Part shown: piece by piece, positions 4,396 through 37,200 of the stretch | How the letters are laid out: every line of letters begins with the position of its first letter | How positions within the stretch are numbered: the first letter of the stretch is position 1 | Position numbers and translations under genes: made by a program | The notes under the pieces: generated by a model | What the model saw: only the letters and a program-made list of their open reading frames with translations | What the model was told of the DNA's origin: nothing | The model's database searches: none | DNA from: a virus | Lineage: Duplodnaviria > Heunggongvirae > Uroviricota > Caudoviricetes | IMG/VR virus record: IMGVR_UViG_2731957842_000006 | Direction: 5' to 3' (one strand) | DNA length: 37,265 nt

Positions 4396-5601
4396 TTAAC
4401 TTGAACCTGTGATACCACCGTCGAAAAAATAGGAATAGGTATCGCCATAAACCAGGCTTGTGTCTTTTGCCGGAGGAACAATATGGCCATTAATGCCAAT
4501 GCTCACACTGATTGTTGAGATCAACGTCGCATCAACCAACAATCTGACGGAACTGGTAAAAATATCCTGGATTCGCAGCAGATTTATCGGGTGTCCGACT
4601 TCAATAGAATTGATGTAATCAGCAACGTTTTGCTGCACAGCCATAGCAATACCCGCCGGATCAACATAATCATCAGATACAGTGTTCCAGGTGATTAGCA
4701 CCATGACGTTTTGTGATGACGGGATAACGAACGGTACCTGATAAACATCTGGCGAAACGGTTATTGAAACCGTGCGTTTTTCCACTGCCGCACCAGATGG
4801 ATTGCTAACATCGTTGGTCAGTTTCGAAATATCCGGTACAGATTTGTAAATAGCATAAGCCACATCATACGGATCACCGCCACCAACAACCGCAACCCAT
4901 TTCCCCAGCGACGACTGCCGGAAAGAAATCAGGTTTTCTCGCACACCGCTTACTGATTTGAGCATCGCTTTAAAGCAATCCGGTGTTCCCTGCACACCAA
5001 ACATGCCGGACTCCATGACTTCGGCGCGGTAAGATGCCCACGTTTGCGCCTCCTGACCTGGCATCCCTGCGGTAAGGTTCGTGCATTTTACAGGCTGATC
5101 TTTGGGTACCGATGTAATGACCTGCGTTACGGTTCCTTCCGGTACAGCCCATGAGCCTGACGTTGTGGCCACACAGTAGACTGGCTCAGTCTGCCCGCTT
5201 TCCGGCACCACCGTATCGCGGGAAACTGCATACTGGTAGTTGCCGTCACCGACAACAAATCCTTTAGGGATACCAAACCCCGGCAACGCCTCAAACACCA
5301 CGTATACCGCCGTATTTGTACTTAATCCCTTCTGTGCTCCATAAATGTTTCCGAGTTGCATCAGTAACGGAATATTTGCGCCGTATGGGCTTACGGAGTT
5401 AATAAGGTCCACCCGCGCCTGGTCTATTAATGCCAGCGCCCCGACAGCCGTGCTGGCAAGGTCTGTAATAAGCCCCGCCGGAAGGTTGGCTGTATATCCA
5501 GGTACTTTTTCGGCAACTCTGGTGATAAGATTCGCGAGCAAATCATTGGGTGGCGTAGGCTGCGCCCCCGCACTGGTCATAGTAATTGGTATTTCTGACA
5601 T
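4396..5601 (-). CDS. baseplate J-like protein
   Basis: 401-aa ORF; size and position match baseplate J family (Mu gp47 / P2 gpJ-like) ahead of the I-like and fibre genes. Confidence 0.7.
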   Translation of the reverse strand: MSEIPITMTSAGAQPTPPNDLLANLITRVAEKVPGYTANLPAGLITDLASTAVGALALIDQARVDLINSVSPYGANIPLLMQLGNIYGAQKGLSTNTAVYVVFEALPGFGIPKGFVVGDGNYQYAVSRDTVVPESGQTEPVYCVATTSGSWAVPEGTVTQVITSVPKDQPVKCTNLTAGMPGQEAQTWASYRAEVMESGMFGVQGTPDCFKAMLKSVSGVRENLISFRQSSLGKWVAVVGGGDPYDVAYAIYKSVPDISKLTNDVSNPSGAAVEKRTVSITVSPDVYQVPFVIPSSQNVMVLITWNTVSDDYVDPAGIAMAVQQNVADYINSIEVGHPINLLRIQDIFTSSVRLLVDATLISTISVSIGINGHIVPPAKDTSLVYGDTYSYFFDGGITGSS

Positions 5602-5641: not shown

Positions 5642-6801
5642 TTATTCAACCTCTTCTAAACTGCTCACTCTGGACCCTCGGCGGAAATTATCATCATTTT
5701 TAACATACTCATATGAATCCAGAATCAAACCAGATATGCGAAGTATATCTTCCGGATTAGTTATATGTATCCTTTTACCATCCGTATCAAGTCGAGCTCG
5801 TCTTATTTCATTCAACTGAACTTCACTAAGCGAAATAGGTAATGTTATAAATGAAGATTTTTTATCATAAAATCTTAACAGCCATCTATTAGTTTTACCA
5901 TTCAATAGTACACCAAAATATGACTCAGTATCTTTATATTCTATATTATCTTCTGTTTGTATGATTTGTTTTACCCTTTCAAATAGTTCCAATTCTTTGG
6001 CTGTGGTTATTATGTTGGGGTTTTCTTCATCAACAATGGCGTTATTAACTTGTGTATCCGTTGCATCATTTTCTTTAGTTTGCTCTACCGGTTGTGTAGA
6101 TAGCCCGGAAACCACCATTGCGCTAACAGCGCGCTCAACGGCCTGTTTAACTAATGGAGTCACGAACTCAAGAAATCTCTGATTAAGTTGTCTCTCAATA
6201 TTTGAACGACTAGCAACATATCGAACAAACTCCAGATCAACTTCACGAAGACTAGAACTGATTGTTTTAGTAAATGAATTCAAATAAACACTTTCTTCAG
6301 CCAGTGTCCGTAAAGCCTCTGGTTTGAATTTATCATAACGAAAACGAAATAATTGTGTAATATCGGAGTGAGTTAGAGAATCCATTCTTATTTTTAAAAA
6401 CGGCGTTGAATCCATTATGTTTTTTGTTTCAAATCCGTAAAAAAACGCCATTCAACACCATTTGTAATGGCTGATATAGTAACTTCCGGTGTTGAATTAA
6501 AATATCTTGATAGCTGTGGGCAGTGATTATCAATTTGTTCTGAAAACGATTTCGCCTCAATGAACATCACAGGAACATCATGACAAAATAAAGCGTAATC
6601 AACCCGTTCATTAGCCTTAACCCCGGGGAAGTCAGCACTATACTCAGCTTTGACTTTTCTTGGATCATACGGAGTAAAACCAAGAATATCTAGTAATGGC
6701 ATAATGAGTGCTTGTTTTGTCGTTTCTTCAGTTGTACAAAACACCCCCATTTTTGCAACATGCTCTGTGTGTATTTTTAACTTATTTGCAAAATTTTCCA
6801 T
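5642..6801 (-). CDS. HsdR-N-like PD-(D/E)xK nuclease-domain protein with about 265-aa uncharacterised C-terminal region; reading frame broken at a homopolymer (ORFs 6415..6801 and 5642..6451)
   Basis: N-terminal 128 aa carry the restriction-endonuclease-like pattern (PLLDILGF ... VDYALF ... VMFIEAKS ... QLSRYF ... ITNGVEWRFF); GGAGGAG Shine-Dalgarno 8 nt before the ATG at 6801; frame changes at A7 6439-6445 (one extra base would fuse both ORFs); roughly 33-35 percent GC by eye versus about 50 percent in flanks. Confidence 0.5.
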
Positions 6802-6829
6802 GCTTGTCTCCTCCATGGTAACAATATGT

Positions 6830-10235: not shown

Positions 10236-12314
10236 TTACCCCGGTATTTGTTGCATTCCGGCGAGTTGTGCCAGTATGTCGGAACCTGGTTTTTGTTGAA
10301 CGTCGAGCCTGATTACCTGAGAAGTATTATTTGGTGAATATACGTTTCCCCGGTTCATTGCCAGCGCCCGCATCACATCATCGCCACTTACTGCACGAGC
10401 GGCGTCCCCATTTTCATGGTTAATAATGCCCTGAATTAGCTTTCTCATTATCTCAAAATTAGAACCATCGATTTTCTCCTTAACACCTAATCCGGTGTAC
10501 TGAGAGAGATAGCTTTTATAGGACGATGTGTTATTTCCATCAGATGAAGGGGCATAAATATCAATAATCTGATCAATCGTATTTTTGCCGCGTTTCAGGT
10601 ATAGCATTACCTGCCGATCTAAGGCAGCAATGCCTTCCAGCATCGTCGGGAAGCTGGCAAAACGGGCATTTGGCCCCGATTCCAGGGTAGCCCCTTTTTG
10701 TCCTGCGAAATTAAGATTTCCGGGATTGTTATTCCTGATCCCTCTGGATAAATATGCAGATCTGTTTACTTGATTTGAAAATCCCTGCAATCCTCCAGGC
10801 CAGACCTTACCCGGATTGTTTTTTTGCCACTCCTGCACTTCGTTAAAATAATCAAAGTTGAAACGCCCCTCCAGCCCTTTCATTTCCTCACTGGTGGTAG
10901 GTGTGTCATTTGTAGGAATAGCCAATCCAGCTACTGTTCCGGCTGTAGCCCCAAGAAGACTTCCACCAACAACACGGGCGGCAACTCCGGTCGTTGTGGC
11001 TGCCACAGCACCAACTCTCGATGGTCCAGCAAGTACTGCGGCCCCAAAAAGCCAGGGATGTTCAACCGCAAAACCAACAAACCCGCTAAGTGCCTTAACA
11101 ACCTTTGCAACATTTTCGGCAAAATTATTCAGGTCGTTATTAAAATCCGGGCCATTTACATACTTACCAAGTTTATCCAGACCTGTTTCAACATCAGTCA
11201 AAATTCTTTTAAAGTTCTCACCGTTAAGGAAATTTAGACCAGCATTCTTTACACCATTAGATATTCTAATTAGCTGTACAGAGTTACCCGACATTACCCC
11301 CTGAAATCCGCTGGTAAGTTGATCCCAGTTATTTTCTAAGTTGCTGGTAAGATTCTGATACTGGCTTGTATGTCCAGAGGTGAGCAACGAGTCATTCTGA
11401 GAAGCTCGCGATAAAAACTCTTTGTTGAGTTCAGGTATTTTGTCCTGATATTTGACTAACTGGTTAGCAATACCAAAATTTACCCATCCAAGGCCACGAC
11501 CTCTGAGCATGCTCTGAGTAAGTCCAGTTCCCTCATACTCCTTTGCAAGAGCAGCAACTCTTTCTAACAATACAGGAAGATTTTCTGCTGCCCCTTTTTT
11601 AGGATTTATCCCTAATCCAATTAGCCCGTTGTAGGCAGGATGCTGAGTGTCATTTTGCGCGGCTGCCAGTGTATTGAGCAAATTACCAACACCGGAAAAA
11701 TAAGGCGAATAAGTGCTTTCTGCCGCCTTTAACTCTCCTGGCGTTGCCTGCAATTCATCAGCATTTTTCTGTTTCTCTACAACATTACGAGCCATCATGC
11801 CAAAGCCAAACGGCCCGGCAACACCCATAACCGCAAGTTTTGTCCCCCACGATACGGTGGTTTTAAACAGGTTGTTTAATCTCGAAGTCGTCGTCCGTAG
11901 CGTAGAATTGATCTGCTTGTAAGTTTTCAGCGTCTGTTTGGCGTTTTTCCCCAGCCCGCTGAGGTACTTATCAAACATCGTTTCGCCGCGACCTTTATAG
12001 TTGCTCACCAGCGAATCAGGTGTTTTCCCGCTGCCAACAAAGCGCCATTTTTCATCCCTTAAACGTCCATCAGTGGAAGCAGCCAGAACTGGCGCGGGTG
12101 AAGATGGTTTCCTGGGAGCCTGATTGGCTTCTCCGCCTGTGGTTGTCTGCCAAGAGCCACCTCCCGGACCGGTATTTGAAGGTATTTTAAGCGGCGTACC
12201 GGCAGGGCCAATCATCAGTCCGTTGCGATACTTTTCAAATATCGCCTCAAGCCGCCTGAGGTGTTCTTCATTAACATCCAGCGTCAGAACTGGCATCTGG
12301 TTACCAGCCATCAC
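10236..12314 (-). CDS. putative tail tape measure protein (692 aa)
   Basis: Largest tail-operon ORF, after the chaperone; Gly/Ala-rich hydrophobic stretches (AVLAGPSRVGAVAATTTGVAARVVGGSLLGATAGTVAGLA) typical of tape measure proteins; C-terminal region with RGIRNNNPGNL motif. Confidence 0.55.
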   Translation of the reverse strand: MMAGNQMPVLTLDVNEEHLRRLEAIFEKYRNGLMIGPAGTPLKIPSNTGPGGGSWQTTTGGEANQAPRKPSSPAPVLAASTDGRLRDEKWRFVGSGKTPDSLVSNYKGRGETMFDKYLSGLGKNAKQTLKTYKQINSTLRTTTSRLNNLFKTTVSWGTKLAVMGVAGPFGFGMMARNVVEKQKNADELQATPGELKAAESTYSPYFSGVGNLLNTLAAAQNDTQHPAYNGLIGLGINPKKGAAENLPVLLERVAALAKEYEGTGLTQSMLRGRGLGWVNFGIANQLVKYQDKIPELNKEFLSRASQNDSLLTSGHTSQYQNLTSNLENNWDQLTSGFQGVMSGNSVQLIRISNGVKNAGLNFLNGENFKRILTDVETGLDKLGKYVNGPDFNNDLNNFAENVAKVVKALSGFVGFAVEHPWLFGAAVLAGPSRVGAVAATTTGVAARVVGGSLLGATAGTVAGLAIPTNDTPTTSEEMKGLEGRFNFDYFNEVQEWQKNNPGKVWPGGLQGFSNQVNRSAYLSRGIRNNNPGNLNFAGQKGATLESGPNARFASFPTMLEGIAALDRQVMLYLKRGKNTIDQIIDIYAPSSDGNNTSSYKSYLSQYTGLGVKEKIDGSNFEIMRKLIQGIINHENGDAARAVSGDDVMRALAMNRGNVYSPNNTSQVIRLDVQQKPGSDILAQLAGMQQIPG

Positions 12315-15726: not shown

Positions 15727-16153
15727 TGTTATCTATCCACGCTATAAAGCTGCCCTTAAACAGGCCGCCATCTATGAATGACGGGCGCCGCTCCCCGGTA
15801 TATTTGTCCTTAAGCCTTGAGTTAACACCCTGTAACGCAGCCTGGGTTGGGACCTGATTTCCGTTGATCGTCATTCCGGCCATTTCTTCGGTTTCAAGAA
15901 ATATATGGAAAATCTTCCCGGTCCCTTCCAGAAAATGCTCGCCAGGTAGCGGAGCCTTATACTTGAAGTGATTGACCAACTGGTACGCCAGTTCAGTACC
16001 TGCCTCCTGGATAATCTCGTCCTTATGCATTTCCCAGAAGTGCGTAAAAATTTCGTATCGCTCCTCGAGGTCACAGGCCACGTCAAACGTGGTTTTTCCC
16101 GGTTCGTCGCCGTAGTCATACGGCTGGTCGATAACCCCAAAACAAAGTTTCAT
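15713..16153 (-). CDS. hypothetical virion protein (about 146 aa)
   Basis: ORF with ATG overlapping the upstream stop (MKLCFGV start). Confidence 0.35.
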   Translation of the reverse strand: MKLCFGVIDQPYDYGDEPGKTTFDVACDLEERYEIFTHFWEMHKDEIIQEAGTELAYQLVNHFKYKAPLPGEHFLEGTGKIFHIFLETEEMAGMTINGNQVPTQAALQGVNSRLKDKYTGERRPSFIDGGLFKGSFIAWIDNNAES

Positions 16154-17117: not shown

Positions 17118-17309
17118 TTATGCGTATTCCCGGCGTTTGTCCGGCGACTCCTCCACCAGCTCCTGCCATGTCGCGGTAAATTCACGTCGCCACTGGTAAA
17201 ACGTGGTTTTATAGTCATCAGTTATGATGTCCGGGTAATCATTTTTCAGCGACTGATAAAATTCCTCGTTCCAGGCGATGTACTGCACCAGGCGTTCGAA
17301 ATAATCCAT
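17118..17309 (-). CDS. small hypothetical protein (63 aa)
   Basis: ATG overlaps the terminase TGA (TGATG coupling); no similarity to a terminase nuclease domain. Confidence 0.3.
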   Translation of the reverse strand: MDYFERLVQYIAWNEEFYQSLKNDYPDIITDDYKTTFYQWRREFTATWQELVEESPDKRREYA

Positions 17310-18043
17310 CACAGGTTCAATCTGCTGGCGTACACCATCGATAACGCGTCTTTGGACCAGTCCACGAACTCGGCAAGATATTCCTGCTGCCAAACGCGCG
17401 GATCGGATTTCTTCTCCGTTTCCTCCAGTTCTTCTTTCGGAATGTACGGATTCGATGAAGTTGGCGCATGGTGCATGACAAATCCCAGGGATTCATCGTG
17501 GCATATCGCGTAGAAAAAATTGCTCTCGTCGATACCGTTTGGTGTGGAAAATACCCACGCACAGCCACGGTAATCAACAAGCGTCGGGCGTATAGCGCGG
17601 GGCCAGATTTCCTCGAGCATTTCCGGCGATTTAGTGAATGCGGCCTCATCAATCAGCACAGCGTGATATTTACGCCCACGCCCGGCCAGTTTGTTATTGT
17701 CCGTTACCCAAAAGTCGATGCGCCCCCCATTACGGAGAATAATGCGCTTTTCATTTTTTGACTGGCTGAGGATCAGCGGTTGCAGAACGGCGCTAATTTC
17801 ATCCCAGATTTCCTGGTACTGTCGGTATTGTGCGGTAAAAATCCCCACCCTACCCGCGATAAGCTGCCCGGTGGTAGGAACGGCAAATTTCCGCGTCGCG
17901 AAACTGGTAGCGATGTTCACCAGCATCACCGTTTTACCCCAGCGACGACCACAGCATACCGCGTGGAAGCGTTCCTCTATTGCCGCCGTCCATGCAGCTA
18001 TTTGCCCCTCATGAGGTTTTGGGAGGTAGATTTCAATCGACAT
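17309..18043 (-). CDS. terminase large subunit, N-terminal ATPase domain only (244 aa; truncated)
   Basis: Walker A GRRWGKT and Walker B-like VLIDEAAF with STPNG motif; ORF ends after about 244 aa and no nuclease domain, portal or capsid genes follow. Confidence 0.6.
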   Translation of the reverse strand: MSIEIYLPKPHEGQIAAWTAAIEERFHAVCCGRRWGKTVMLVNIATSFATRKFAVPTTGQLIAGRVGIFTAQYRQYQEIWDEISAVLQPLILSQSKNEKRIILRNGGRIDFWVTDNNKLAGRGRKYHAVLIDEAAFTKSPEMLEEIWPRAIRPTLVDYRGCAWVFSTPNGIDESNFFYAICHDESLGFVMHHAPTSSNPYIPKEELEETEKKSDPRVWQQEYLAEFVDWSKDALSMVYASRLNL

Positions 18044-22794: not shown

Positions 22795-22860
22795 ATGAAA
22801 AAGGCCCGCCGGAGCGAGCCATAAAAAACTGAATAAAAAAAACCGCCAGGTGCGGCGGTT
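22795..22860 (-). repeat. copy A of a roughly 66-bp direct repeat carrying tandem hairpins and U-tracts (terminator 22831-22860)
   Basis: Near-identical to 23475-23537; minus strand AACCGCC-GCACCT-GGCGGTT followed by T9. Confidence 0.6.
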
Positions 22861-23112: not shown

Positions 23113-23187
<75 letters not shown>

Positions 23188-24491: not shown

Positions 24492-24568
24492 TGGTCCGCC
24501 ACCGAGGACTCGAACCTCGCACAATCAACTTAGAAGGTTGATGCTCTATCCCGATGAGCTAGTGGCGG
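24492..24568 (-). tRNA. tRNA-Arg (anticodon UCU, reads AGA)
   Basis: Hand-folded 77-nt cloverleaf: acceptor CCGCCAC/GTGGCGG, anticodon arm TCAAC-CTTCTAA-GTTGA, T-arm CGAGG-TTCGAGT-CCTCG, encoded CCA. Confidence 0.85.
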
Positions 24569-24570
24569 AA

Positions 24571-24646
24571 TGGTGGCCCTTGCTGGATTTGAACCAGCGA
24601 CCTGGCGATTATGAGTCGCTCGCTCTCACCACTGAGCTAAAGGGCC
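24571..24646 (-). tRNA. tRNA with CAU anticodon, Ile2 (lysidine-type, reads AUA)-like; could alternatively be Met
   Basis: 76-nt cloverleaf GGCCCTT ... anticodon loop CTCATAA ... T-arm GCTGG-TTCAAAT-CCAGC ... AAGGGCC-A-CCA; resembles ileX-type tRNAs; 2 nt from the tRNA-Arg. Confidence 0.8.
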
Positions 24647-26512: not shown

Positions 26513-26668
26513 TTACTCCTCAGGTTCGTAAGCTGTGAAGACAGCGACCTCCGTCTGGCCGGTTCGGATTCGTACCTCGCAGAGGTCTTTCCTCGTTACC
26601 AGTGCCGTCACTATGACGGTTAAACAGATGACGATCAGGGCGATTAACATCGCCTTTTGCTGCTTCAT
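26513..26668 (-). CDS. hok: Hok/Gef-family type I toxin (51 aa)
   Basis: MKQQKAMLIALIVICLTVIVTALVTRKDLCEVRIRTGQTEVAVFTAYEPEE: single transmembrane helix plus conserved C-terminal Hok motif; long leader with hairpins; track ORF 26513..26725 is an in-frame extension. Confidence 0.8.
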   Translation of the reverse strand: MKQQKAMLIALIVICLTVIVTALVTRKDLCEVRIRTGQTEVAVFTAYEPEE

Positions 26669-28786: not shown

Positions 28787-29549
28787 TCACTTTTCCGATA
28801 CAACACAGCGGGAAGAATCAGTAATCTGGCGAACAATATCCCGGTGCTTGTTCAACTCCCGCAGCGCGGCGCAGACACGCTCCCACTTCTGGACATGGCT
28901 TTTCGCCCGACGCAGTTTGCGGTTTGCCAGATGCAGCGATGGCAAAATCAAATCATCCGCCCGCGTTTCGGTAAACGATGGCAACGACTGCACAATGTCC
29001 GCTACAGTATCTGTTTTAATTTCTTCCTGTGTTGCAGCCTCCTGTACTGGTAACGCAACACCTGCGGGCTGAGGAAAAGCCTTACCATCAGTTTCCGCTA
29101 CCGATGCTGCTTTCGGCTCTGCTGGTAAATTATCGCCCGGTATGCAGTAACGAAATTTACCGCCCTGATTTACGCGAATCAGACGACCTTTGCTGATTGC
29201 CATTGCCAGCGTTGAAGCCACTTTGCGTGATGTGGTACCAAACAATGTAGCCAGTTCATCCGCCGTTTGTGGTCCGCGTTGTTCAATCGTCGCGGTTAAA
29301 TCGCACTCTGAGATTTTCGCTACTGTCGCCGTGCTGGTTTCTTCCGGCTGTTCTTCTGGCGCTGGCTGTTCCTGCTGAACGTTGTTATCAGCCACACGCC
29401 AGGTGTATGCGCTTTTATCAACGAAGCCAGCCTTTTTTCAGTTCCCACAGCTCGTTCAGTACTTCTTCACGACTGATATCAAGTCGCGCAGCCAGCTCTA
29501 CCGACGTGGCTTTTCCCATCGCTTTCAGTGCGTCAAAAACAGTCTCCAT
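28787..29549 (-). pseudogene. winged-HTH protein in the Rac ydaW position, split by a frame break (43-codon N-terminal ORF 29418..29549 plus 202-codon ORF 28787..29395)
   Basis: N-terminus [37 protein letters not shown] reads as a wHTH; frame changes at T6 29433-29438 and a stop follows; T5 or T8 would give one continuous ORF of about 255 aa. Confidence 0.5.
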
Positions 29550-29569
29550 AAATTTCCTCCCGGTAAAAA

Positions 29570-30316
29570 TTACTTTTCAATACCTGGCTGACCAACATTC
29601 GGGCGCCAGCTCTCCCAGTTAAAATTCACCCAGCGCCCGCCGTTCATGGTCATGCGATCCATAATCCGCTCGCCGAGCAATGTTTTCATGGCCTCATAGT
29701 TCAGGTTTGTCAGCATTCCCACGCTACGCATCGACGCTGTCCGTCGATCAATAATCTGGTGCAGTACCACCTGCTCGTTTTTCGTCTCGCGCTGAATGCC
29801 AATTTCATCAAGAACCAGCAGATCCACTTCGCACAGTTCCCGCAAAAATTTTTCGCCTGACTGCCCGTCGTCATAGCTGGCGTGCAGGGCGCTCATAACA
29901 TCAGCCACGGTAACCACAATCACTGTCTGACCGTCTTTCAGCAGGCGATTCCCGATAGCTGCCGCTAAGTGATTCTTCCCGGTACCAGGTTTTCCGCTGA
30001 ACGCAAAATTTGTACACCCGGTCATCAGTTCATCGGCGATGGATTTCGCCTGGCTTAACGCGTATCGCTGGCCGTCGTTCTGCACCTGGTAATTCGCAAA
30101 CGAGCATTTACGGTGCAACGGCTGGATGCCTGAGCGATTCAGAATTTTTTCCACCCGCAACTGGCGATTCAGGCGGTTGATCTCCTCGCTACGTTTCTGG
30201 CCTTCAGCAAGTTGCCACTCGCGCCACTCCGCAACCGTTCTGAATGGGGCGGTTACATGTGGTGGGGTCAGTCTGCGGATACGCTCCAGAACGCCTCCTG
30301 TCGCAATATTTTTCAT
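29570..30316 (-). CDS. DnaC-like replicative helicase loader (IstB-like AAA+ ATPase)
   Basis: Walker [16 protein letters not shown] and Walker B LLVLDEIG; GGGGGT Shine-Dalgarno; follows the O-like gene. Confidence 0.8.
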
Positions 30317-30322
30317 GGTCTG

Positions 30323-31111
30323 TTACCCCCTGAAGCCTGGCGGGATCGCACTGTCCGGCAACGAGACGGTGTTAACCTGTCGGAGCAACGTCTCAGGCCG
30401 AACACCTTTCGGCGCGAACAGGCCCTGGTATTCATTGGCGATGCTGTGTCGAATCACCTGCTCAGGTGTAAACCCCTGCTGACGGAATTTTTCCAGTTCC
30501 CGTATCGCCCCGTTAGCGCCCTGCTCCGTTCGAATCGGTTTTCGCAATGCCTGTCTGAACCGGACCCACTCATGCCAGAGTGTTTCCGGCAACCAATCGG
30601 GCAGCTCAATAGCCTCCGGCTCGAATTTTTTAGACGCTCGTTTTTGGCGAGGGGGATTTAGGGGGAGATCAGTATTTAGATCTTCCTCTTCCTCTTCCTC
30701 TGGTAGCGCTTTTTGATCCGTTTGTGTAACGCCGGCAGCGTTACCTTTTCGTTTCAGTTCACGTATTTTTGTAACTCGCTCGTTTGTAACCGCCCGTTTT
30801 TTAGAGCTTTTTCCGTTATGGCGTTCAAAGTTAGGTAGAGAAAGCCCAACGTCATTTTCGACCAGCCATCCAACCTGAATTAACGCATCAGCAAAACCAG
30901 CCATAAAAGTGATGCGATCTATTGCACTTTTTGTAACGCCGCGAGCGTTACAATCTGCATTACCGTCTATCATTTGTTGATCCGCCCATGCCCAGAAGCG
31001 AATAACCTTCCCTAATGCGGCATCTGGATCAATATTCAGAATCTCAGCAAGCCTGAATATTTCCGGCTTATCCGGCGTAATAACCTCGAGCTTTATCCAG
31101 TTTGAAGCCAT
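30323..31111 (-). CDS. replication initiation protein, lambda O / DnaT-like position (262 aa)
   Basis: AAGGTGA Shine-Dalgarno; acidic linker (EEEEEED); immediately upstream of the DnaC-like gene as in lambdoid replication modules. Confidence 0.55.
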   Translation of the reverse strand: MASNWIKLEVITPDKPEIFRLAEILNIDPDAALGKVIRFWAWADQQMIDGNADCNARGVTKSAIDRITFMAGFADALIQVGWLVENDVGLSLPNFERHNGKSSKKRAVTNERVTKIRELKRKGNAAGVTQTDQKALPEEEEEEDLNTDLPLNPPRQKRASKKFEPEAIELPDWLPETLWHEWVRFRQALRKPIRTEQGANGAIRELEKFRQQGFTPEQVIRHSIANEYQGLFAPKGVRPETLLRQVNTVSLPDSAIPPGFRG

Positions 31112-31188
31112 TTGTTTTCACCTTGTAACGCTCGCAGCGTTACATTTAACTGATACCGAACAAAACAATCCGGCACGATTAATTTCAA

Positions 31189-31611
31189 TCAATGCACTAC
31201 GACAGAATCACCGGGCGACCCACCACCGCTGAAATGTGCTTTCCGGTAAACGGCCTGGACTGCATCATCATGCGCATCAATTGCCGTACTCAACGCTTCC
31301 TGCGCCGCCAGTAATGCACGGCGTTCCAGGGTATCGAAGATGCAGAGTCGGTGACGCAGCTCGCGCGGAAGAATTGCCAGAACCGCAGGGATCAGTGTCT
31401 GAATTTTTTCCCTTTGCGCTTTCGTTTCACCTTTTAACCAACGGTGATAGATGTTCTGCTGATTATTCCAGTCCTTGCCTGGTACCAGGGGCAATTCGCC
31501 GCCCCCCTGGCGCAGATATTCTTCAGTAATTGCATTGGCTACCCATGCCTGCCCTTTTTCAGCGGCCAGGGCTAACAGCACTGATTCGATGTGCTCATGC
31601 CTGATTTTCAT
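31189..31611 (-). CDS. YdaT-like / CII-position regulatory protein (140 aa)
   Basis: AGGAG Shine-Dalgarno; sits between the Cro-like and replication genes as Rac ydaT does; size matches. Confidence 0.5.
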   Translation of the reverse strand: MKIRHEHIESVLLALAAEKGQAWVANAITEEYLRQGGGELPLVPGKDWNNQQNIYHRWLKGETKAQREKIQTLIPAVLAILPRELRHRLCIFDTLERRALLAAQEALSTAIDAHDDAVQAVYRKAHFSGGGSPGDSVVVH

Positions 31612-31870
31612 GAATCAACTCCTGTGCATTTTGTGTGTTAGCCTTACATCCAACAGGTAAACCATCGGTCGGATTCGGGTAGATATCAGGCCGGAGTTCA
31701 TGAGGTGTAACCTCGAAATTCGTAGCCTCTGCGATACGCAATACCTTTTCAGGGCTTAACTGACTACGTCCAGTAGCAACGAGGCTAATCATTGATTGCG
31801 AACAACCAGCCAGCGCGGCCAAACAAGACTGTCGTACACGATTTTTTTTCAAATATTCATCTAATGTCAT
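31595..31870 (-). CDS. Cro-like HTH regulator (about 91 aa)
   Basis: ATG at 31870 with AAGGTGA Shine-Dalgarno (track ORF begins at an upstream TTG); HTH segment QSCLAALAGCSQSMISLVATGRSQ; divergent from the repressor gene. Confidence 0.55.
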   Translation of the reverse strand: MTLDEYLKKNRVRQSCLAALAGCSQSMISLVATGRSQLSPEKVLRIAEATNFEVTPHELRPDIYPNPTDGLPVGCKANTQNAQELIHENQA

Positions 31871-31974
31871 AAGGGTCACCTTAGTAATGTTCGCCAAAAT
31901 ATTAACTATACTAATTTAAATGATCAATACTTATATCAGTTTGAGATTATGAGCTGTGTTCATAAGATGGTGGT
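31871..31974. promoter_or_regulatory. immunity-region divergent promoter/operator interval between the Cro-like and repressor genes
   Basis: About 100-bp AT-rich intergenic region between divergently transcribed HTH regulator genes. Confidence 0.35.
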
Positions 31975-32438
31975 ATGAGAAGAAAACGCGAAGAAATCGC
32001 ATCGCCAGAAGCTACGCAGCGTCTACGCGGAATCTGGGATGCAAAAAAAGAGAGCTCAAATTGACTCAGGAGCTTGCTGCCGAGCTAATGGGCTTTGAGA
32101 CGCAATCTACGGTTAGCCACTATCTCAACGGAAAGGCTCCACTTAACACTGATGCGGCATTAAAATTCGCAGTATTGCTAAGAGTTAAGCCTGAAGACTT
32201 GAGGCCTGATTTAGCTGATCTGATGAATTACGTCCGTTCCTCTGGAACTTATGACGAAAGTTTCGAAGGCGAAGGGTGGCGGATGGTTAACAAGCAACAA
32301 GCTGATTTACTGGATCTTTTTGATATCCTCCCCGAATCAGAAAAAGCAAAACTAATCGAAAGGCTTAAAGGCCAGAATGAACTCTACAAAGAAGCGTTTG
32401 AAAATATGCTGGCAGCTCAGAAACGCATAAAGAAATAG
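31956..32438 (+). CDS. racR: CI/RacR-like HTH repressor (about 155-160 aa); N-terminus ambiguous
   Basis: HTH region LKLTQELAAELMGFETQSTVSHYLNG; main frame has no ATG before the HTH (track start is a GTG at 31956); an ATG at 31975 opens a second frame (MRRKREEIASPEATQRLRGIWDAKK) that joins the main frame if A7 at 32043-32049 were A8. Confidence 0.55.
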   Translation: MFIRWWYEKKTRRNRIARSYAASTRNLGCKKRELKLTQELAAELMGFETQSTVSHYLNGKAPLNTDAALKFAVLLRVKPEDLRPDLADLMNYVRSSGTYDESFEGEGWRMVNKQQADLLDLFDILPESEKAKLIERLKGQNELYKEAFENMLAAQKRIKK

Positions 32439-32455
32439 CCCCCACTACCTCGTAA

Positions 32456-32485
32456 CTAAACCGCCATCCCTGGCGGTTTTTTTGT
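32456..32485 (+). terminator. intrinsic terminator after the repressor gene (AAACCGCC-ATCCCTG-GCGGTTT followed by T-run)
   Basis: Stem-loop plus U-tract 20 nt downstream of the stop. Confidence 0.5.
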
Positions 32486-32674
32486 CCCCTGCGCCCCCAT
32501 CGCCTTACTTTTTTATCAAAAAAAACACTAAAATTTTCATTAGGATAGTACATTTTTATCAACAAAATGCATATTTATGTTGATCATCAATATGAATATA
32601 ACTAATATTATTGCAGAAGCAGCACGGCGCTGTAGGTTTTAGTTCCGCCACCCGGCGTTAAGGGGAGAGATAAG

Positions 32675-32809
32675 ATGGTGCATTACGAAGTAGTTCAGTA
32701 TTTGATGGATTGTTGCGGTATCACTTACAACCAGGCTGTGCAGGCTTTACGCAGCAACGACTGGGATCTCTGGCAGGCAGAAGCCTCTATCCGCAACAAC
32801 AAAATGTGA
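32675..32809 (+). CDS. small protein (44 aa), Rac ydaG-position
   Basis: AGGGGAGAGA Shine-Dalgarno; MVHYEVVQYLMDCCGITYNQAVQALRSNDWDLWQAEASIRNNKM; not in ORF track (short). Confidence 0.45.
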   Translation: MVHYEVVQYLMDCCGITYNQAVQALRSNDWDLWQAEASIRNNKM

Positions 32810-32819
32810 GGTGCGAAAA

Positions 32820-32972
32820 ATGCAAAAAATCGACCTCGGCAATAACGAATCCCTGGGGTGCGGCGTGTTCCCCAACCAGGATGGAACGTTCACTGCCATG
32901 ACTTATACCAAAAGCAAGACATTCAAAACTGAAACGGGCGCACGTCGCTGGCTTGCCAGAAATACTTGCTAA
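32820..32972 (+). CDS. small protein (50 aa), Rac ydaF-position
   Basis: Manual translation MQKIDLGNNESLGCGVFPNQDGTFTAMTYTKSKTFKTETGARRWLARNTC; follows the previous small ORF by 10 nt. Confidence 0.45.
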   Translation: MQKIDLGNNESLGCGVFPNQDGTFTAMTYTKSKTFKTETGARRWLARNTC

Positions 32973-33392
32973 TCCATTATTTGGATTAATTCAATATTCT
33001 CGCTGTAGGGGTATAGCAGAAACCACCAAAGCCCGGAGGTGGTGAAATAAAACCGGGCACAACACGAAGTCGCATTTCCGATATCCATAAAGAGTCGGTC
33101 TTGTCTGTTAAATTTAAATGGTGGGAGTGCGCCTCCGGTTGTGGATAACAACACTGCTGTGTGTAGTCTTGGCGGCATCAGTTTTTTCTTGAAGTTCGAC
33201 TGATGTCCGCCCTTTTTAAAGTGAATTTTGTGATGCGGTGAATGCGGCTAAGCGCACGCGGCACAGTTAAAAGTCATGTTAGTCCTTATTGGTTTGGGTG
33301 GGAAAGCCGACTGTAATTGTTAACTGGTTGCAGTCACCTGGAGGCACTAGGCACCGCATCAACAAAGTTCATTTGTAAAAATGGAGATAATT

Positions 33393-33614
33393 ATGATTGC
33401 ACATCACTTCGGAACTGATGAAATACCACGTCAGTGTGTGACTCCTGGTGACTATATTCTTCATGAAGGCCGGACATATATTGCCTCGGCAAACAATATT
33501 AAAAAGCGAAAACTTTATATTCGTAACCTGACTACAAAAACATGCATTACTGACTGCATGATTAAAGTCTTCCTCGGTCGTGATGGTTTACCTGTAAAGG
33601 CGGAGTCATGGTGA
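33393..33614 (+). CDS. kilR: KilR-like small protein (73 aa)
   Basis: GGAGA Shine-Dalgarno before the ATG at 33393 ([10 protein letters not shown]...); size and order (followed by 56-aa and 91-aa genes then recE) match the Rac early-left operon. Confidence 0.5.
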
Positions 33615-33784
33615 TGACTAAGAAAATAAAATGTGCTTACCACCTTTGCAATAAAGAAATTGAAGAAAGCAAAAGTATTAAAAGACCACTTCATTTCATG
33701 CGTGGAGTTATCCCAACGACGGAAATGAAAAAATATTGTAGTGAAAGTTGTGCCGAAAAAGACCAGATGGCACACGAACTTTAA
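33614..33784 (+). CDS. small Cys-rich zinc-binding-like protein (56 aa), Rac ydaE-position
   Basis: TGATG overlap with the upstream stop; cysteine pairs CAYHLC and CSESC. Confidence 0.45.
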   Translation: MTKKIKCAYHLCNKEIEESKSIKRPLHFMRGVIPTTEMKKYCSESCAEKDQMAHEL

Positions 33785-33858
33785 TTAACTGACTATTCGA
33801 AACTGAATTTATGCCAGCAATGGCAGGGATTCGCTCAACCTTAATTAAGGAGAAAAAC

Positions 33859-34134
33859 ATGATTACCAATTATGAAGCCACTGTTGTAACTACCGATGAC
33901 ATTGTTCACGAGGTTAATCTGGAAGGAAAGCGTATTGGCTACGTGATTAAAACAGAAAATAAAGAAACCCCATTCACTGTGGTTGATATCGACGGTCCAT
34001 CAGGCAACGTAAAAACACTTGATGAAGGTGTCACAAAAATGTGCCTGGTTCACATCGGAAAGAATCTGCCCGCAGAAAAAAAAGCCGGATTTCTGGCAAC
34101 TCTGATTGCAATGAAATTAGGCGGTGAAATCTGA
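33859..34134 (+). CDS. racC: RacC-like protein (91 aa)
   Basis: AAGGAGA Shine-Dalgarno before the ATG at 33859; immediately upstream of the RecE-family gene. Confidence 0.5.
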   Translation: MITNYEATVVTTDDIVHEVNLEGKRIGYVIKTENKETPFTVVDIDGPSGNVKTLDEGVTKMCLVHIGKNLPAEKKAGFLATLIAMKLGGEI

Positions 34135-34235
34135 AAGAAATAGCCTGCGCCATACGCAGGCTATGAACAGTGTGTATCCGGCAAGATCATTCACTGAACA
34201 AAACGAATTTTAATCTGAGTTGAGGTTAAAAAACA

Positions 34236-37200
34236 ATGAGCACAAAACCACTCTTCCTGTTACGGAAAGCGAAAAAATCATCCGGTGAACCTGACGTCGT
34301 CCTGTGGGCAAGCGACGATTTTGAATCGACCTGTGCCACTCTGGACTACCTGATCGTTAAGTCAGGTAAAAAACTGAGCAGCTATTTTAAAGCTGTTGCC
34401 ACGAATTTTCCTGTCGTTAATGACCTGCCCGCTGAAGGTGAGATCGATTTTACCTGGAGTGAACGCTATCAACTCAGCAAAGACTCCATGACATGGGAAC
34501 TAAAACCGGGAGCAGCACCAGACAACGCTCACTATCAAGGCAATACCAACGTCAACGGCGAAGACATGACTGAGATTGAGGAGAATATGCTACTCCCAAT
34601 TTCTGGCCAGGAACTGCCCATTCGTTGGCTTGCTCAACACGGCAGCGAAAAACCGGTAACGCACGTTTCACGCGACGGACTCCAGGCATTACACATTGCT
34701 CGGGCTGAAGAACTACCGGCTGTTACTGCCCTGGCTGTTTCCCACAAAACCAGCCTGCTCGACCCGCTGGAAATTCGCGATCTCCACAAACTGGTTCGTG
34801 ACACTGACAAAGTTTTCCCTAATCCTGGTAATTCAAACCTGGGACTGATAACTGCTTTTTTCGAAGCATACCTGAACGCTGACTACACCGATCGAGGACT
34901 GCTGACAAAAGAGTGGATGAAGGGTAATCGTGTTTCACACATCACTCGCACGGCTTCCGGTGCTAATGCTGGCGGCGGAAACCTCACCGATCGCGGCGAA
35001 GGTTTCGTACACGATCTGACGTCACTGGCGCGCGACGTAGCCACTGGCGTACTGGCCCGTTCAATGGATCTGGACATCTATAACCTTCATCCGGCACACG
35101 CTAAACGCATTGAGGAAATTATCGCTGAAAATAAACCGCCCTTTTCTGTTTTCCGCGACAAATTCATCACCATGCCTGGCGGGCTGGATTATTCCCGCGC
35201 CATCGTGGTTGCGTCCGTAAAAGAAGCACCAATTGGGATCGAGGTCATCCCCGCGCACGTCACTGAATATCTGAACAAAGTACTGACTGAAACCGATCAT
35301 GCCAACCCTGATCCGGAAATCGTGGATATTGCCTGCGGTCGCTCCTCTGCCCCGATGCCGCAGCGAGTAACAGAAGAAGGAAAACAGGATGATGAAGAAA
35401 AACCGCAACCATCTGGAACAACGGCAGTTGAACAGGGAGAGGCTGAAACAATGGAACCGGACGCAACTGAACATCATCAGGACACGCAGCCGCTGGATGC
35501 TCAGTCACAGGTAAATTCTGTTGATGCGAAATATCAGGAACTGCGGGCAGAACTCCATGAAGCCCGGAAAAACATTCCATCAAAAAATCCTGTCGATGCC
35601 GATAAATTGCTTGCTGCATCACGTGGTGAATTTGTTGACGGAATTAGCGACCCGAACGATCCGAAATGGGTTAAGGGGATCCAGACTCGCGATTCTGTGT
35701 ACCAGAACCAGCCAGAAACGGAAAAAACCAGCCCGGATGTGAAACAACCTGAGGCAGTAGTGCAACAGGAACCGGAAATAGTCTGCAATGCCTGCGGTCA
35801 GACTGGCGGAGATAACTGCCCTGACTGTGGGGCGGTGACGGGCGACGCAACATACCAGGAAACATTCGATGAAGAGAATCAGGTTGAAGCTAAGGAAAAA
35901 GATCCGGTGGAAATGGAAGGCGCTGAACATCCGCACAATGAGAATGCTGGCAGCGATCCGCATCGTGATTGCAGTGATGAAACTGGTGAAGCGTCAGCTC
36001 CTGTAGCAACTGAAATCATGTGGCCGTCATATTTCGAGCCTGGCCGCTATGAAAACCTCCCGAACGAGGTTTATCACTCCGCCAACGGAATAAGCAGCAC
36101 GATGCTGAAGGATGCCCGTATCAGCCTGATGTATTACCACGGGCGGCACATTGCCGGAACTATTCCGAACGAGGAAAGTGATGCACTGCTGCGTGGGCGG
36201 ATCATTCACAGCTATGTTCTGGAAACGGATAAATTCGCTGATGAATATGCCATTCCGGTACCGGTTCCTGAATATGTGGTTACTACTTCTAACGAACTGA
36301 TCGCCATCATTAAAAAACACAATGCCAGTCTGCCAGCACTGATGACACCAGAGCAGATGAAAGAGTGGATCGAAAGCTACAACAGCACTCTTATACAGCC
36401 ACTGTCTGTAAGTGCTGGGGCCGAAGAAACAGGCATCCTTTACGGTTCGCTTCCGGTGGAATTTCGGCGTATTCCTGAGGGGGAAAAACATACAGCATCA
36501 GCAATGAAAGCCTGTATTAAAGAATACAACGCAAGCCTCCCTCCTCTGTTGAAAACCAGTGGAGCACGGGAGCAGCTTCTGGATCAAATTGAAACTGTAG
36601 ACCCAGAACTGGCAAAAAAAGAACGTGCTAAATCTTTGCCTTACAACATCAGTGGCACAAAAGAGCAATTAACCGAAATCGCACGGAAAATTCGCCCGGA
36701 ACTGGTGACACTGGAGGACTGGCAAAAACGCCAGCAAGAAGAAAACGCCGGGAAAACGTTTATCAGTCCGGATATGTATGAACAGGCAAAAAATATTCAC
36801 GCTGCAATGCAAAACAATACTGATGCAGCAAGGCTACTCAACCACCCGGATCGCAAATCTGAAATCAGCTATTTCGGGTTTGATGAAGAAACCGGGCTGG
36901 AAATCAGGGTCCGTCCTGATATCGAAATCCGGCTGCCATACGAAAGCATTTGCGCTGACGTGAAGTCAGTCAGCCTCGGTTATGTGCGGCAGGAACGACT
37001 TAAAGATCGCCTGCACCGTGAAATTATTGAGCGTGATTATCACCTCAGCGCCGCAATGTATTGCGATGTGGCAAACCTGGACAAATTTTTCTGGATCTTC
37101 GTCAACAAAGATGCTGGCTATCACTGGGTGGCTGTCGTGGAAGCCTCGCAGGAACTCCTGGAACTTGGTCGACAGGAATATCGCCGGACGCTACGCCAGA

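Follow-up and report, generated by a model that had tools for sequence, protein, structure and literature searches.

A one-base break at an A7 run in a CI-like prophage repressor gene, probably a pyrosequencing under-call

The viral record IMGVR_UViG_2731957842_000006, a stretch of 37,265 nucleotides that is called the window below, contains an immunity module in which the gene for a CI-like prophage repressor (31975..32438, + strand) is interrupted as written by the lack of a single base. Does this break belong to the biology of the prophage, or to the way in which its DNA was read? An earlier note on this DNA had claimed that the N-terminus of the repressor spans two frames, with the start at the ATG at 31975 and a one-base gap at a run of seven adenines (A7). 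This layout is borne out by the orthologues, which carry eight adenines (A8) and a single open reading frame (ORF) from the same ATG. We consider it probable that the break is a sequencing artefact, a true A8 that Roche 454 sequencing under-called in the draft genome of E. coli VL2874, a Newbler assembly of low coverage. The true tract of the strain would then be A8, and the break would be absent from the bacterium itself.

A repressor gene in two frames

Translation of the window from the ATG at 31975 yields MRRKREEIASPEATQRLRGIWDAKKESSN*, a frame of 29 codons that ends at the TGA stop at 32062-32064. Both the N-terminal arm of the repressor and its helix 1 are specified by this upstream-frame segment (31975..32064, + strand). 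The rest of the helix-turn-helix (HTH) protein (...CKKRELKLTQELAAELMGFETQSTVSHYLNG...) is carried one base back from the ATG frame, in a frame that is open from a GTG at 31956 up to 32438 and specifies 160 aa, including ...NLGCKKRELKLTQELAAELMGF.... The two frames meet at the A7 homopolymer at 32043..32049 (+ strand), which in the intact orthologues is A8 and encodes ..A-K-K-R... When they are joined via one extra A, the result is exactly the 154-aa protein that is annotated in the nearest genomes (...GIWDAKKRELKLTQE...). As judged by comparison of the sequences, chance is excluded as the origin of the two-frame pattern: homologues with as little as 52% identity still retain the out-of-frame N-terminal segment at the protein level.

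Orthologues and the native start

A region of 1371 nt was matched over its full length in 75 of 5426 complete E. coli genomes, the best matches being RM11911, RM13745 and RM13752 (99.9%) and A41 (99.6%), each of which is one base longer. The alignment places the extra base at the eighth A of the run, and A8 was indeed found in RM11911, RM13745, A41 and A30. Among the matches listed, 60 complete E. coli genomes carry this repressor; 56 of them have the longer form and four have A7 (ETEC6333, ETEC6334, ETEC6335 and ETEC1701). On the A8 genomes RefSeq annotates an intact "helix-turn-helix domain-containing protein" of 154 aa from the same ATG, and the gene in the window is the WP_042973012.1 gene of RM11911 but for one A. 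A large protein collection contained the exact intact protein on 317 contigs and the 160-aa GTG product on a single one. A 116-aa product from an internal ATG was present on two contigs, with A7 on the source contig only; the second one, of 531 nt, has A8.

The same picture emerges from more distant relatives. In Salmonella, Hafnia, Enterobacter, Serratia, Phytobacter and Dickeya we found 24 full-length homologues, all of 151-155 aa and with 52-96% identity. In all 24 the N-terminal segment lies in one frame with the remainder, and L17, W21 and K25, located at or before the junction, are invariant. Since the A8 orthologues and these homologues all show a single-frame N-terminus, the comparison identifies the ATG at 31975 as the native start and a single ORF with A8 as the ancestral state. 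The earlier note had held that orthologues starting in the main frame with the same A7 run would speak against its view; the orthologues in fact start at the ATG and have A8.

The GTG at 31956, which the earlier note had mentioned as the alternative start, could in principle give the repressor a different, lineage-specific N-terminus in the main frame. The uninterrupted 160-aa ORF that it opens (31956..32438, + strand) is there, and one automated gene call uses it. We find this hardly credible, and the ORF is unlikely to represent a real product. The GTG falls within the -35/-10 spacer of the predicted repressor promoter, in the A8 genomes it is out of frame with the HTH-encoding part, and it is the N-terminus of the other frame that is conserved in homologues, whereas residues 1-26 of the GTG frame are not conserved and displace helix 1 of the CI-type domain. 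The GTG was consequently rejected as the true start.

Probable homopolymer miscounts in the source assembly

The 6351 nt at 29088-35438 of the window are 100% identical to JTFE01000023.1 of assembly GCA_001441335.1, and JTFE00000000 is the genome project of E. coli VL2874, a bovine mastitis isolate (PMC4725725). This strain was sequenced with the Roche 454 GS FLX Titanium only, and 280,000-336,000 reads of 230-291 nt were assembled with Newbler 2.6 (PMC4556653). The coverage, according to our own estimate from the published read numbers, was about 15x. Pyrosequencing is known to miscount long homopolymers.

Over the approximately 35 kb that could be aligned, the window differs from RM11911 by 7 single-nucleotide polymorphisms (SNPs) and 9 single-base indels, 8 of the latter located in homopolymers of 5-9 bases. 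A second comparison was made with VG48B2 (NZ_CP128584.1), an independent complete genome from Switzerland. Here, positions 1-30473 contain 1 SNP (26319) and 5 single-base indels, one of which (17341) is not in a homopolymer. The other four are found at 4424-4429 (A6 in the window, A5 in VG48B2), 6420-6425 (T6, T7), 22835-22842 (A8, A9) and 29433-29438 (T6, T5). At all four it is the window that stands apart: the length in VG48B2 is that of the RM strains which cover the site, and the same length is found in JNU at 4424-4429 and 6420-6425 and in A41 at 29433-29438.

Some of these differences break genes. The T6 at 6420-6425 splits an ORF of 386 aa into 5642-6451 and 6415-6816 (- strand), whereas VG48B2, RM11911 and JNU have T7 and an intact ORF; in the relatives it is annotated as a "type I restriction endonuclease" (WP_000426902.1) and is found among the baseplate genes. 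This split is probably another 454 miscall. Similarly, the T6 at 29433-29438 truncates a DUF1627 gene (28787-29548, - strand), which is intact in RM11911, RM13745, A41 and VG48B2, to an ORF of 202 aa. Through the A6 at 4424-4429, the baseplate J gene has a changed end.

When the repressor run is included, the private homopolymer indels amount to five, in both directions and with three of the five gene-breaking, against one private SNP. Five homopolymer miscounts to a single SNP, as this comparison has it, is a pattern unlike real divergence and like 454 data. An artefact is thus the most likely cause of the break in the repressor gene, because the draft is based on 454 reads only and because the other private differences from near-identical prophages are homopolymer calls that are off by one. 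Homopolymer gene breaks in this window, the one in the repressor gene included, should be treated as 454 artefacts ahead of any biological reading.

A vote on the homopolymer sites that relied on the RM strains only was tried and proved uninformative, because these strains are sister genomes with homopolymer frameshifts of their own, at 16093-16097 and 34076-34083; the matter was resolved once VG48B2, JNU and A41 had been added. At both of these positions the window is intact and the RM strains are changed, with A7 instead of A8 at 34076-34083 (the gene in the racC position) and T6 instead of T5 at 16093-16097 (a tail-region gene). For the gene in the racC position, RM11911, RM13745 and A41 all bear the annotation "frameshifted". 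Long-read complete genomes are not free of homopolymer frameshifts in this prophage either.

Can the tract truly slip?

Several observations weigh against an under-call. The length of the tract in VL2874 was taken from the assembly, and the window's prophage is defective, lacking several kb of head genes that RM11911 carries. The site can truly slip, as a real A8-to-A7 allele exists elsewhere. Moreover, a Logan contig of 3.7 kb from SRR2070767 has A7 as well, and the artefact reading would fail if that run consisted of Illumina data from VL2874. This contig is the only other A7 assembly of the present repressor allele. It differs from the window solely by an A7 for the A8 at 32518-32525, an additional A-run difference which suggests that homopolymer calls are noisy in that data set too.

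These observations bear on the possibility that A7 arose by a genuine, recent A8-to-A7 slippage in VL2874. The repressor gene would then be a pseudogene whose loss is tolerated or compensated, and the tract a mutational hot spot. We regard this as unlikely, yet a true mutation in VL2874 stays a live rival because the tract can slip, as is shown by a lineage of enterotoxigenic E. coli (ETEC). There, in ETEC6333, ETEC6334, ETEC6335 and ETEC1701, the same change affects another allele of the repressor and is almost certainly real. ETEC6333 (A7) and ETEC4075 (A8) differ over 31 kb by 2 SNPs and by the A run as the only indel. The ETEC allele was met in its A7 form again in LSBR01000601.1, and Logan assemblies belonging to four other accession series have it too. 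Judging from these sequences, the porcine ETEC-type lineage seems to have inherited A7 as a real allele. In line with a slippage-prone tract, AAAAAAA runs are under-represented in E. coli genes, for which high indel rates are one possible reason (PMC4066793). The loss of several kb of head genes would also fit this reading.

On the other hand, the four further private homopolymer indels and the one private SNP of the window display the spectrum of 454 errors and not that of evolution. For the present allele, A7 was seen only in the source assembly and in the SRR2070767 contig. In addition, the holin, endolysin, kilR, ydaT and replication genes are all still in place, and a null repressor would be expected to be hard to maintain next to them. 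Among the sequences compared, A7 appears in one ETEC-type lineage, where it is probably real, and in the present 454 draft, where it is probably erroneous; further independent origins did not come to light.

The ETEC prophages with A7 have lost structural genes and have a disrupted replication gene, and their ydaT, cro-like gene and kilR are intact. The A7 repressor gene is annotated as "frameshifted" in ETEC6333, the one genome of the four whose annotation was inspected. A literature search for the sequencing method of the ETEC6333 genomes returned nothing. The persistence of an A7 allele beside intact kilR and ydaT bears on whether the repressor is dispensable or is leakily restored. The Rac-like prophages of ETEC6333 and ETEC4075 (locus around 10483-11701) also carry genes for an ADP-ribosyltransferase and a subtilase-family AB5 binding subunit beside the lysis genes. 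They recall the toxin-bearing Rac-like prophages reportedly described by Jobling.

Possible recoding at the heptamer

If A7 were real, the two-frame layout might itself be put to use. A -1 ribosomal frameshift on A_AAA_AAA, or else slippage during transcription, could yield full-length repressor, either to keep its level low and tunable or to serve as an on/off contingency switch. The tract does have the required form: in the frame of the ATG at 31975 it reads GC-A AAA AAA, a perfect in-phase X_XXY_YYZ, on which a -1 shift restores the wild-type ..AKKREL... The same heptamer is a proven shift site in one cluster of insertion sequences (IS), where a stem-loop stimulates it (PMC4066793), and the lineage in which A7 is real has endured while keeping kilR and ydaT intact.

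Despite the in-phase heptamer, programmed -1 frameshifting was rejected. A stimulatory structure is absent downstream, as the segment 32050-32120 folds no better than its shuffles (z = -0.13), and without a stimulator such heptamers shift in E. coli at only 2-10 times the background level, which is about 0.05% (PMC4066793). Nor is the layout conserved, the gene being a single ORF in 56 of the 60 genomes among the matches listed and in all 24 homologues of other taxa. We therefore deem recoding extremely improbable; a real A7 allele could be slightly leaky at most, and the heptamer is not a programmed signal.

Alternatively, the A8 tract (codons 23-26) could be a slippage-prone switch, with A7 variants surviving on a trickle of wild-type repressor that is supplied via the heptamer or by slippage of RNA polymerase. 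The prophage would then be held at the edge of derepression. This, too, is very unlikely in our estimation.

The repressor protein

Read as a single ORF with A8, the repressor has a Pfam HTH_3 match (E 6.5e-9), and in a search of PDB sequences its residues 12-82 match the N-terminal domain of lambda CI (E 2.5e-7 to 1e-5; 3kz3 and 1lmb at 2.5e-7 to 1.5e-6). The segment upstream of the A run aligns with CI residues ~8-25, and within it residues 12-25 correspond to helix 1 of the lambda CI N-terminal domain. A structural model (predicted local distance difference test score, pLDDT, 75) was compared by Foldseek with the lambda CI N-terminal structures 1lmb, 1lli and 3kz3, giving template modelling (TM) scores of 0.72-0.83 normalised to the target at 30-42% identity. 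Helix 1 of the model comprises residues 11-25, which are encoded ahead of the A run and would be lacking in the GTG product. The C-terminal half is modelled as a low-confidence linker (~90-106) followed by a helical hairpin (107-153), and it had no match in Pfam or the PDB.

On the basis of these matches and the predicted fold, the protein is a repressor of the lambda CI type (XRE/HTH_3) whose DNA-binding domain has five helices and whose C-terminal tail is short and helical. No Pfam match to Peptidase_S24 was obtained, and full-length lambda CI (3bdn) was matched over its N-terminal domain only. As an S24/LexA-type domain is absent, RecA-mediated self-cleavage is not expected. Of the alignments that the earlier note had suggested, the one with CI proteins thus revealed a CI-like N-terminal domain in both sequence and predicted fold. 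The one with RacR gave no detectable similarity (BLASTP best E = 4.5); homology to RacR was discarded, and the repressor shares with it only its position.

Predicted promoters, operator candidates and terminator

A consensus scan placed a PRM-like promoter (TTGAGA-16-TAAGAT) at 31941..31968 (+ strand), with a predicted start at about 31975, the A of the repressor ATG. Lambda cI is transcribed from PRM as a leaderless mRNA, and by analogy the same geometry here would yield a leaderless repressor mRNA; the repressor would be made from this promoter, with transcript start and ATG coinciding. The start of the repressor gene (31962-31972) shares an exact 11-nt repeat, ATAAGATGGTG, with the start of a ydaG-like ORF of 44 aa (32670-32680). 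Within the repressor copy of ATAAGATGGTG, an ATG at 31967 opens a mini-ORF of 3 codons whose TGA overlaps the ATG of the repressor.

The window contains TTGATC-N17-TAATAT in exact form just twice, where 0.03 matches would be expected; the two copies are inverted with respect to each other and flank the repressor gene. The PR-like copy (31899..31927, - strand) faces the Cro-like gene, and the PL-like copy (32580..32608, + strand) faces ydaG/ydaF/kilR/recET. Both are enclosed by a 44-nt inverted repeat of 70% identity (31893-31936 and 32571-32614). From their sequence and arrangement the two copies appear to represent PR/OR and PL/OL, to which the repressor presumably binds. Beyond the Cro/YdaS-like gene, ydaT and the replication genes also lie on the side that the PR-like copy faces. 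Operator candidates are the shared words ATGATCAA and ATA(T)AACTA and the palindromes at 32577-32593 and 32595-32609; scans for palindromes and repeats fixed no operator consensus beyond these candidates. The repressor gene is followed by a predicted intrinsic terminator (32458..32486, + strand); the coordinates given by the earlier note (31189-32485) extend over the terminator at 32458-32479.

The Cro/YdaS-like gene, YdaT and the Rac-family setting

Divergent from the repressor, an operon starts with a gene for an HTH regulator of 91 aa (31595..31870, - strand) that matches Pfam YdaS_toxin (PF15943, E 2.2e-10) and HTH_3 and is annotated as Cro/YdaS-like by RefSeq in relatives. It is followed by ydaT (31189..31611, - strand), which encodes a CII analogue of 140 aa (Pfam YdaT_toxin PF06254, E 9e-11). 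The adjacent YdaT-like gene of the earlier note is confirmed by this Pfam match and by 94% identity to K-12 YdaT, as is its immunity module by the divergent order of the CI-like repressor and the Cro/YdaS-like gene with YdaT; structural relatives in the PDB are 3c4r and 8bt1. Further along lie the gene in the replication-initiator position (30323-31111) and a DnaC/IstB-like ydaV (29570-30316).

YdaT is a CII-like, tetrameric DNA-binding protein (PMC11879457, PMC9986795) that recognises TTGATT-N6-AATCAA (PMC9986795). The best match to this box in the window, with 1 mismatch, is the inverted repeat TTGATTCATGAAAATCAG at 31601..31618 (- strand), over the start codon of ydaT, and the YdaT-box of K-12 is located at the same position (PMC11879457). 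Weaker matches with 2 mismatches were observed at 31175-31192, at the ydaT stop, and at 31792-31809, inside the cro-like gene; the total number of YdaT-box matches in the window is not significant. The latter site presumably corresponds to the location at which K-12 has PracR4, a reverse promoter for the repressor.

The K-12 repressor RacR is essential, since its loss derepresses ydaS and ydaT (PMC5700373, PMC5700377), but the reading of the K-12 module as a toxin-antitoxin pair has been disputed (PMC5917428). We assign YdaS as an analogue of Cro and YdaT as one of CII. The earlier note had argued that the integrity of the repressor matters for the viability of the host, as in Rac. In the K-12 sense it would matter indeed; the biology of a broken or recoded repressor that this argument implies does not hold up, as the gap is most likely an artefact.

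Because the prophage occupies the Rac site with its repressor/cro pair swapped and ydaT conserved, its gene content marks it as a heteroimmune member of the Rac family beside ttcA, with a normal lambdoid immunity switch. The module as such was already annotated: RefSeq has the intact form as WP_042973012.1 and lists the A7 form of ETEC genomes among the pseudogenes, marked "frameshifted". Its architecture is textbook lambdoid. The repressor allele was absent from the deposited phages in a search of a phage database, in which only the ydaT part found matches, e.g. in Rac-SA53 and vB_EcoS-666R9.

Condition of the prophage

Compared with RM11911, some 5.6 kb of head genes are missing from the window at 17127-17343, namely the portal/"Acb1 family" gene, DUF2213 and genes of the capsid region, and the gene for the large terminase is cut short. 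In VG48B2 the first junction of this deletion is the same, but about 1.6 kb more has been kept. Unless the gap is a collapse of the assembly, the prophage is, by its gene content, defective. Apart from the head genes, the tail and lysis genes are kept. In VG48B2 an O-like gene is fused to a truncated recE (locus 44809-44999), and the repressor, cro-like gene, ydaT and kilR are gone. By losing its whole immunity region, this otherwise near-identical prophage has had the same module disarmed in another way.

The late region carries three tRNA genes on the - strand, for Gly-TCC (23115-23187), Arg-TCT (24492-24568) and a tRNA with anticodon CAT (24571-24646), which is called Met by ARAGORN and Ile by RefSeq in relatives. 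A hokD toxin gene is located at about 26513-26668.

Comparison with known systems

The private changes of the window share their characteristics with the homopolymer-length errors of 454 sequencing: +/-1 changes in runs of 5-9 bases, in both directions and with almost no SNPs, in a 454/Newbler draft of low coverage. With the programmed -1 sites of dnaX and of the IS3/IS911 family the repressor gene has the in-phase A_AAA_AAA in common, but it differs from them in having no stimulatory structure, an unconserved layout and a single ORF as its ancestral state.

The RacR-YdaS-YdaT module of K-12 lies at the same chromosomal site, with ttcA-intR-xisR-ralR-recT-recE-kilR-ydaF-ydaG as neighbours on one side and ydaV on the other, and it shares the nearly identical YdaT as well as the YdaT-box over the ydaT start codon. 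The repressor of the window, however, is unlike RacR, and the identity between its Cro-like protein and YdaS is 42% over 50 aa. The switch of CP-933P in E. coli O157:H7 (PaaR2/YdaS/YdaT) is related through YdaT, since the YdaT of the window matches 8bt1 (E 1.2e-6), although the relationship in sequence is distant. Finally, a parallel in design to the repressor itself is lambda CI, with which it shares the N-terminal domain, a gene divergent from a cro-like gene, two inverted early promoters and a PRM-like start at the ATG, and from which it differs by lacking the S24 or LexA-type autocleavage domain.

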